This document shows positions 45,109-45,662 of a DNA stretch of 64,000 nucleotides, in pieces. Within the stretch, counting starts at the first letter, position 1, and each line of letters opens with the position of its first letter. The notes under the pieces are model-generated. The model saw only the letters and a list, made by a program, of their open reading frames with translations. It had not been told where the DNA came from and searched no databases. Source of the stretch: Escherichia coli (GTDB lineage: Bacteria > Pseudomonadota > Gammaproteobacteria > Enterobacterales > Enterobacteriaceae); the NCBI RefSeq assembly GCF_051903065.1, contig NZ_CP178438.1. The stretch is one strand, 5' to 3'. A program made the position numbers and the translations under genes.

Positions 45109-45662
45109 CCTGATAAGACGCGGTCAGCGTCGCATCAGGTATTTGGCACCGTTGCCGGATGCGCGAGAATTTGTAGGCCTGATAAGACGCGCAAGCGTCG
45201 CATCAGGCAGTCGGCACTGTTGCCGGATGCGGCGTAAACGCCTTATCCGGCCTACGGAGGGTGCGGGAATTTGTAGGCCTGATAAGACGCGCAAGCGTCG
45301 CATCAGGCATCTGGCACCGTTGCCGGATGCGGCGTAAACGCCTTATCCGGCCTACGGAGGGTGCGGGAATTTGTAGGCCTGATAAGACGCGCGAGCGTCG
45401 CATCAGGCATCAGGCATCTGGCACTGTTGCCGGATGCGGCGTAAACGCCTTATCCGGCCTACGGAGGGTGCGGGAATTTGTAGGCCTGATAAGACGCGCA
45501 AGCGTCGCATCAGGCAGTCGGCACCGTTGCCGGATGCGGCGTAAACGCCTTATCCGGCCTACGGATGGTGCGGGAATTTGTAGGCCTGATAAGACGCGCG
45601 AGCGTCGCATCAGGCATCTGGCACCGTTGCCGGATGCGGCGTAAACGCCTTATCCGGCTTAC
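45109..45662. repeat. tandem BIME/REP array, about five ~100 bp units
   Basis: Unit gaatttgtaggcctgataagacgcgcaagcgtcgcatcaggc...gccggatgcggcgtaaacgccttatccggcctacggagggtgcgg recurs at 45167, 45267, 45367, 45474, 45574; third unit carries a 7 bp catcagg duplication. Confidence 0.9.

Follow-up and report, generated by a model that had tools for sequence, protein, structure and literature searches.

The window analyzed here is a 64,000-nucleotide stretch of Escherichia coli DNA (assembly GCF_051903065.1, contig NZ_CP178438.1), and our subject is the spacer between two of its genes, yjdN and yjdM. This spacer is filled by a tandem array of repetitive extragenic palindromic (REP) sequences arranged as bacterial interspersed mosaic elements (BIMEs). 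The feature is real but already known: it is this strain's copy of REP325, a well-studied E. coli REP array. Positions are counted from the first letter of the window. The array and its flanking genes are as follows.

44599..45042, minus strand: yjdN (phnB), 147 aa, the downstream gene (open reading frame list, RefSeq annotation, Pfam PF06983/PF00903).
45104..45662, minus strand: the whole BIME-2 array, this strain's REP325 allele (Tandem Repeats Finder, unit parsing, homology with the K-12 MG1655 spacer).
45677..46012, minus strand: yjdM (phnA), 111 aa, the upstream gene (open reading frame list, RefSeq annotation, Pfam PF03831/PF08274).

The gene names had been given in a first-pass annotation of the window and were confirmed by the RefSeq annotation of an identical sequence and by Pfam. 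Both genes lie on the minus strand, so the array forms the 3′ untranslated region of yjdM and the leader of yjdN. After the yjdM stop codon (TGA, 45679-45677) come 14 nt and then the first REP, whose GUAA foot lies at 45662. This 14-nt spacing was kept in all 12 alleles that we read base by base. At the other end, a GAGG ribosome-binding site lies 8 nt ahead of the yjdN ATG.

Tandem Repeats Finder (TRF) reported the array at 45163-45662 with a period of 100, 4.9 copies, 92% matches and a score of 856. The second-best tandem repeat anywhere in the window scored only 69. A seed-and-extend repeat search found five in-register copies with start-to-start distances of 100, 107, 100 and 100 bp. The first-pass annotation had described a tandem BIME array of paired inverted REPs with a 100-bp period and had named self-alignment as the check on it; the periodicity was recovered, and the description held in the TRF score, the repeat spacing, the unit parsing and a consensus scan.

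Units were delimited by splitting the spacer at the foot of every Y REP. They start at 45104 (69 bp), 45173 (100 bp), 45273 (100 bp), 45373 (107 bp), 45480 (100 bp) and 45580, where the last Z2 REP runs to 45662. The array contains six Y REPs together with five Z2 REPs that are intact and a sixth cut down to a stump, arranged head-to-tail as five full units and a truncated one. The earlier count of about five units was a fair one to which the truncated sixth unit at 45104-45172 has to be added, and the left edge, placed before at 45109, moves to 45104. A full unit consists, in order, of a Y REP of 36 nt on the minus strand, an inner linker of 13 nt (20 nt in the 107-bp unit), a Z2 REP of 34 nt on the plus strand and an outer linker of 17 nt between REP feet. 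The consensus scan found six minus-strand Y copies and five plus-strand Z2 copies in strict alternation. Internal Y REPs all start with GTAGGCC and internal Z2 REPs all finish with GGCCTAC; the terminal copies read GGAAGCC and GGCTTAC. The parts of the array are listed below.

45104..45172, minus strand: truncated yjdN-proximal unit, 69 bp (unit parsing).
45104-45139, minus strand: degenerate Y REP of the truncated unit (unit parsing).
45154-45163: Z2 stump of the truncated unit, GCCGGATGCG, the first 10 Z2 bases (unit parsing).
45173-45208, 45273-45308, 45373-45408, 45480-45515 and 45580-45615, minus strand: Y-type REPs (consensus scan).
45222-45255, 45322-45355, 45429-45462, 45529-45562 and 45629-45662, plus strand: Z2-type REPs (consensus scan).
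45409..45415: extra ATCAGGC in the inner linker of the 107-bp unit, a duplication of 7 bp by slippage (TRF period 7).
45253-45275, 45353-45375, 45460-45482 and 45560-45582, minus strand: C-rich outer linkers of 23 nt, the "U motif" of Qian et al.; shortened at 45157-45175.

The truncated unit holds a degenerate Y, a linker, the Z2 stump and then the remainder of the outer linker. It falls 31-32 bp short of a complete first unit, which measures 100 bp in K-12 and 101 bp in the alleles L005 and L009. The length of the 107-bp unit had been ascribed to a catcagg duplication, and both the unit parsing and a separate TRF call (period 7, 3.4 copies, 45400-45423) traced it to the extra ATCAGGC, which lies outside both hairpin stems. 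An identical 1501-bp stretch is present in three independent complete genomes, so the truncated unit and the 7-bp duplication are no one-off assembly error.

The gene order phnC-yjdN-array-yjdM-crfC matches that of K-12, and the units align in register with the spacer of K-12 MG1655. Qian 2015 (PMC4550694) described REP325 as the yjdM-yjdN element, with six Y-l-Z2 units of 77 bp and identical U spacers, and as the source of the nucleoid-associated RNAs naRNA1-6. The array is thus this named and experimentally dissected element, REP325/naRNA1-6, a point that goes beyond the first-pass annotation. K-12 REP325 and the array in the window share the locus, the flanking genes, the orientation, the Y-S-Z2-U unit of 100 bp, the terminal half-units and the 14-nt distance from the yjdM stop. 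They differ in that K-12 has six full units in a 657-bp spacer, whereas the window has five full units, the 69-bp truncated one and the 7-bp ATCAGGC duplication in a 634-bp spacer. The loop of the last Z2 reads GTAAAC in the window and GCGAGC in K-12, and the first Y in the window, unlike that of K-12, is a GGAAGCC...GGTCAGCGTC variant.

Rfam family naRNA4 (RF02564) matched five units on the minus strand over their whole length and scored 86.5-111 bits, the gathering score being 59.5. The 107-bp unit scored lowest, at 86.5 bits, still over the threshold; the truncated unit gave a partial match of 36.5 bits, below it. Each naRNA-type unit is a Z2 hairpin, an inner linker and a Y hairpin and measures 77 nt (84 nt at 45376-45459). 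In transcript order these units are as follows.

45583-45659, 45483-45559, 45376-45459 (84 nt), 45276-45352 and 45176-45252, minus strand: naRNA-type units (Rfam RF02564).

The same model also matched single BIMEs in the window at 2838-2909, 13443-13513 and 42550-42630. A match therefore means a Z2+Y (BIME-2) unit and not a nucleoid RNA. The identification as REP325 rests on position and on homology at the level of the units, not on the Rfam match. The window carries non-tandem BIMEs, with Y and Z2 REPs, at 2835-2912, 13364-13516, 37226-37314 and 42547-42630; three of them are above the naRNA4 threshold, at 69-77 bits, and the phnE-phnD spacer holds one of the non-tandem BIMEs.

The array is a BIME-2 as defined in the literature (PMC3333891) by its y and z2 REPs, tandem arrangement and strain-variable number; its inner and outer linkers, of 13 (or 20) and 17 nt, are both short. 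We found alternating inverted Y and Z2 REPs, multiple tandem copies that vary between strains, and the GTAG/CTAC foot of the REPs. In that definition a short S linker stands between REP and inverted REP, and the flanking motif (s, l or r) is short too; the linker names used for REP325 by Qian 2015 (PMC4550694) are "l" and "U". Other BIME-2 arrays, such as K-12 REP352 (yjjV-yjjW), sucC-sucB and tldD-yhdP, are alike in having tandem Y+Z2 units of about 100 bp, and as a class they are gyrase targets with variable copy number. REP352, in the yjjV-yjjW spacer (14256-14669 of L016), has a period of 101 and 4.1 copies, and its outer linker differs, with no match to the GGTGCGGGAATTT junction even at 2 mismatches. 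The yjdM-yjdN junction sequence is therefore not common to all BIME-2 arrays.

The first-pass annotation had suggested that such arrays can bind IHF. This did not hold here. The IHF site is carried on the long L linker of BIME-1, not on BIME-2 (PMC3333891), and the IHF consensus WATCAANNNNTTR has three matches in the window but none within 45043-45676. A BIME-1 or RIP (IHF-binding) element was rejected because the linkers are only 13 and 17 nt long and the consensus is absent from the array. BIME-1, RIP and RIB elements resemble the array in having an inverted REP pair in an intergenic spacer at a gene 3′ end. BIME-1, however, occurs singly, combines Y with Z1 and has its IHF site on a long L linker, whereas the array is a tandem Y+Z2 element with a 13-nt inner linker and without the IHF consensus. 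A CRISPR array was rejected as well, since the sequences between the REPs repeat near-identically in every unit and are not unique spacers.

To sample the locus across E. coli, we queried with the two flanking sequences joined directly, the array left out, took evenly spaced rows of the resulting ranking (58 complete genomes) and added one genome that was read directly. Among these 59 loci, 30 had one unit, 6 had two, 2 had three, 1 had four, 6 had five, 11 had six and 3 had seven, the five- and six-unit classes being inflated by laboratory K-12 and B derivatives. The earlier claim that copy number varies between strains is borne out by this spread of 1-7 units among the sampled complete genomes. 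The single-unit allele (found for example in FORC_041 and ST131 strains) is the commonest state, at 30 of 59. It has the same flanks and both terminal REPs, Y by yjdN and Z2 by yjdM, but lacks the internal units and the junction, and its RNA would carry two hairpins against eleven.

In all 12 alleles read base by base, a Y REP lies next to yjdN and a Z2 REP next to yjdM, and variation is confined to the internal 100-bp units. Strain PS10-3 (L010) has the same 69-bp truncated first unit as the window, followed by 2 further units compared with 5 in the window. Gain or loss of internal units has therefore followed that deletion.

The 54-nt inter-unit junction was found in 2253 of 5426 E. coli genomes (41.5%), and the exact allele of the window in 3 of the 5426 complete genomes. 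A junction 27-mer had no match in 100,044 species-representative genomes; orthologous spacers of other Escherichia and Salmonella species were outside the scope of this search. Two matches of a junction 20-mer in species representatives were set aside as chance, as they fall inside unrelated Firmicute coding genes without similarity to the window. In some genomes the 54-nt junction occurs in excess of the yjdM-yjdN array (8 places against 5 junctions in K-12-type genomes; maximum 14). The surplus copies point either to another locus built from this unit type or to much longer arrays in some strains.

The two flanks of the array differ in their population profile. The yjdN-phnC side (44043-45103) is rare, with 3 genomes at least 99% identical and the next best at 98.2%, while the yjdM-crfC side (45667-46716) is 99.7% identical to O157:H7 and has 413 genomes at least 99% identical. 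These profiles suggest a recombination (mosaic) boundary at the array or close to it. In strain FAHZZU6724 (L009), an IS1A lies near the crfC start, about 400 bp past yjdM, and crfC is annotated there as N-terminally truncated. This IS1A adjoins a six-unit array and is not inside it.

We folded the 648-nt minus-strand RNA from the yjdM stop to the yjdN start. Its minimum free energy (MFE) was -302.7 kcal/mol, compared with -219.3 +/- 5.8 kcal/mol for shuffled sequences (z = -14.3). The global MFE structure pairs halves of neighbouring Z2 copies. We treated this Z2-Z2 pairing as an artefact of equilibrium folding of repeats, the unit-wise folds being the likelier co-transcriptional state. Folded unit by unit, each 77-nt unit forms a Z2 hairpin and a Y hairpin with an MFE of about -42 kcal/mol. 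In this RNA the Y REP is an interrupted hairpin of 13 bp and the Z2 REP a hairpin of 7+4 bp. Both hairpins still fold in the 107-bp unit (-45.6 kcal/mol), and the truncated unit retains the Y hairpin alone.

The outer linkers are unpaired in the unit folds. As RNA, the linker at 45253-45275 reads UACAAAUUCCCGCACCCUCCGUA. Each 23-nt linker contains 9-10 C, 2 G and 6-7 YC dinucleotides; the shortened linker at 45157-45175 contains 7 C, 2 G and 4 YC. This is the kind of composition that Rho prefers, and we infer that the linkers could together serve as a split Rho-loading site.

Sequence variation is distributed unevenly over the unit. The 12 alleles yielded 14 distinct internal units with 9 variable columns, none of which falls in the 48 REP-stem columns (hypergeometric P = 0.0019); the variable columns are in the Y loop and both linkers. 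The invariant stems fit a constraint on the stems, and homogenisation could also produce this pattern.

A scan of both strands within the array found no intrinsic terminator, that is, no hairpin followed by a U tract, and the hairpins run into the C-rich linkers. This absence is consistent with factor-assisted or roadblock termination. From the array to the yjdN ATG, a promoter scan of the minus strand found nothing promoter-like. The best sigma-70-like site 5′ of yjdM is listed below; going by the consensus scan, it is a candidate promoter for a yjdM-array-yjdN transcript.

46080..46108, minus strand: CCGACA-17-TATAAT, 10 of 12 consensus positions (consensus scan only).

The only promoter-like site in the array is a weak one on the plus strand at 45143-45170 (TTGGCA-16-GAGAAT, 9 of 12). 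It is antisense into the array, is a product of the truncated unit and is probably due to chance.

The function of REP325 has been studied in K-12 (Harris 2026, bioRxiv 10.64898/2026.03.23.713779). The yjdM/yjdN RNA ratio was ~35 in wild type and ~1.0 in a REP325 deletion. On a yjdM-yjdN plasmid without REP325, yjdM mRNA was down ~160-fold, and yjdN was up 8-10 fold without REP325. REP325 transcripts, which in K-12 originate at the yjdM promoter, formed a ladder with hairpin ends. Bicyclomycin raised read-through from 23% to 39% with the full array only, and not with fragments of 2 or 4 hairpins. The first-pass suggestion that the array insulates transcription agrees with this work, in which REP325 cuts yjdM to yjdN read-through ~8-10 fold.

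We consider it likely that the array is a BIME-2 REP325 allele that acts mainly at the RNA level, stabilizing the yjdM message and attenuating yjdN, partly through Rho. Its anatomy, identity, orientation, folds, allele spectrum and want of an intrinsic terminator come from the present analysis; stabilization, attenuation and Rho dependence are carried over from the K-12 experiments and would apply by analogy to the 5+1-unit allele of the window.

In the mechanism that we propose, yjdM and yjdN would form a two-gene transcription unit, and transcription from the yjdM promoter would enter the array on the minus strand. The array RNA is predicted to fold into eleven stable REP hairpins, five Z2+Y pairs and the lone Y of the truncated unit, with the pairs set apart by unstructured C-rich linkers of 23 nt. 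The hairpins would block 3′-to-5′ exonucleolytic decay and so stabilize the yjdM message. The whole array would halt most polymerases ahead of yjdN, partly via Rho, so that yjdM expression would greatly exceed that of yjdN. As DNA, the array would behave as a variable-number tandem repeat whose outermost half-units are fixed and whose internal 100-bp units change by slippage or unequal recombination, gain and loss being possibly aided by a REP-associated transposase.

A related case is the malE-malF intercistronic REP, whose hairpins reportedly shield the upstream mRNA from 3′ exonucleases and raise expression of the upstream gene (a finding attributed to Newbury et al. in 1987). The two systems are alike in that intercistronic REP hairpins protect upstream mRNA. 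The malE-malF element is, however, one small REP cluster without tandem amplification of a 100-bp unit, and partly Rho-dependent attenuation has been shown only for REP325.

Several points weigh against the RNA-level account. The functional data come from one preprint on the six-unit K-12 allele. Endogenous yjdM and REP325 transcripts in K-12 number only ~1-2 copies per cell (bioRxiv 10.64898/2026.03.23.713779), and with transcripts so rare it is uncertain how much the regulation matters physiologically. A single unit is present in half of the sampled E. coli, so a long array is clearly dispensable. In K-12, fragments of 2-4 hairpins showed no Rho dependence, and REP325 was not recovered by an in vitro Rho-binding screen (bioRxiv 10.64898/2026.03.23.713779). 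The invariant stems could stem from recent amplification, gene conversion or transposase recognition and not from selection on the RNA fold; no compensatory changes in REP stems are present among the alleles compared.

An extension of the RNA-level account is that unit number (1-7 in the sample, 5+1 here) is a heritable rheostat for the yjdM:yjdN ratio, with Rho attenuation setting in once enough C-rich linkers form a composite loading site. We put this forward tentatively, and think it doubtful as it stands. If it were true, yjdN and yjdM would be expressed together in the roughly half of E. coli strains that have one unit, and yjdN would be silenced in those with several. The array would then be a concrete tandem-repeat "dial" on the internal stoichiometry of an operon.

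At the DNA level, the array could be a set of strong gyrase sites that act independently of transcription, are cleaved mainly in the Y REPs and form a topological barrier between supercoiling domains. Such a role is compatible with one at the RNA level, and we regard it as possible though unlikely. The array fits the BIME-2 definition, and gyrase cleavage is strongly over-represented in BIME-2, mostly at y-type REPs, and rises when transcription is blocked (PMC6379681); BIME-2 sites also lie mostly at the borders of supercoiling regions (PMC10592627). Cleavage sites were found, however, only in "a subset" of BIME-2 (PMC6379681). They are documented at sucC-sucB and tldD-yhdP and not at yjdM-yjdN, and those supplementary gyrase cleavage-site files of PMC6379681 that were searched gave no entry for yjdM, yjdN or phnA/B. 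The gyrase binding proposed in the first-pass annotation accordingly has published support for BIME-2 as a class (PMC6379681), though not for this locus itself. Deletion of REP325 in K-12 gave no sign of supercoiling-linked or global chromosome effects (bioRxiv 10.64898/2026.03.23.713779).

The array may alternatively be neutral or selfish. It would then be an amplified REP doublet (REPIN) kept by a REP-associated tyrosine transposase and by slippage, its length would drift, and its effects on yjdM and yjdN would be by-products. To us this is conceivable but on balance unlikely. The range of 1-7 units with the single unit commonest, the different internal unit numbers of related strains, and the occurrence of multi-unit junctions in only 2253 of 5426 genomes and in 0 species-representative genomes all speak for it. 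In vitro, BIMEs are cleaved and recombined by TnpA-REP, and BIME-2 elements are described as variable in copy number (PMC3333891). The preprint bioRxiv 10.64898/2026.03.23.713779 also cites a CRISPR interference screen of 15 strains in which yjdM and yjdN were without fitness effect; it reports on the other side that the REP325 deletion altered growth and lag phase of K-12 through yjdM dosage. The contrast between invariant REP stems and variable loops and linkers (P = 0.0019) likewise argues against neutrality, though homogenisation could yield the same pattern.

The array might also act as a brake on translation. In a model that is said to come from Liang, Rudd and Deutscher in 2015, a REP within 15 nt of a stop codon stalls terminating ribosomes and, through trans-translation, would here cut YjdM. 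This is compatible with the RNA-level reading, and we hold it to be rather doubtful. The 14 nt from the yjdM stop to the REP foot at 45662 fall inside the limit, with the same spacing in 12/12 alleles, and the preprint 10.1101/2024.07.17.603846 lists REP325 among the REPs inside it. The first paired base of the hairpin is, however, 18 nt from the stop, so the hairpin is at or past the limit depending on how the distance is counted.

The original REP325/naRNA4 model, in which naRNAs of ~77 nt together with HU bridge cruciform DNA and condense the nucleoid, is in our view very unlikely to describe the array. Five units do match Rfam naRNA4 over their full length, and according to Qian 2015 (PMC4550694) HU was bound, the nucleoid lost its condensation when REP325 was deleted, and naRNA4 rescued it. 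In Harris 2026, which has one author (Adhya) in common with that first study, HU bound naRNA4 but a stable HU-naRNA4-cruciform complex was not seen. In that work the nucleoid was unchanged by deletion or over-expression of REP325, there were no REP-REP Hi-C contacts, and the RNA was present at ~1-2 copies per cell. Only one unit stands at this locus in about half of E. coli genomes, and the Rfam model matches ordinary single BIMEs. The nucleoid-condensation model has largely been refuted already.

Real small proteins encoded by open reading frames (ORFs) within the array (e.g. 45261-45644, 127 aa) can be dismissed with near certainty: open frames of 35-127 aa do exist on both strands, and one BL21 record annotates a "hypothetical protein" under the array region, but three array ORFs had no Pfam match, array ORFs are unannotated both in K-12 and in the RefSeq record with identical sequence, their peptides are plain translations of REP palindromes, and, because 100 and 107 bp are not multiples of 3, the reading frame shifts between units and each copy-number allele alters or abolishes ORFs. 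The ORFs at 45143-45644 had already been called artefacts in the first-pass annotation, and rightly so.

Elsewhere in the window, Rfam gave matches to the enterobacterial small RNA STnc630 at 51330-51495 on the plus strand (181.8 bits) and to the selenocysteine insertion element SECIS_2 at 15982-16036 on the minus strand (87.1 bits). The phnE frame is open at 41752-42594 on the minus strand. A closely matching RefSeq record has an intact phnE, which is a pseudogene in the K-12 MG1655 annotation.

In E. coli, REP325 serves as the model REP cluster; it has an Rfam family of its own, and two experimental studies have been devoted to it. What is new here is modest: the anatomy of the allele, the spread of 1-7 units in 59 genomes, the junction census (2253/5426) and the rarity of the allele (3/5426). 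The results also show that the six-unit "model REP" array of K-12 is not typical, as half of the sampled genomes have a single BIME and 41.5% of 5426 have any inter-unit junction. For annotation, ORF calls within the repeats are best suppressed, and assemblies from short reads may come out with a collapsed unit count. The K-12 fragment data hint that attenuation is as strong as the number of units makes it; if so, yjdN expression would differ between strains whose promoter and coding sequences are unchanged.

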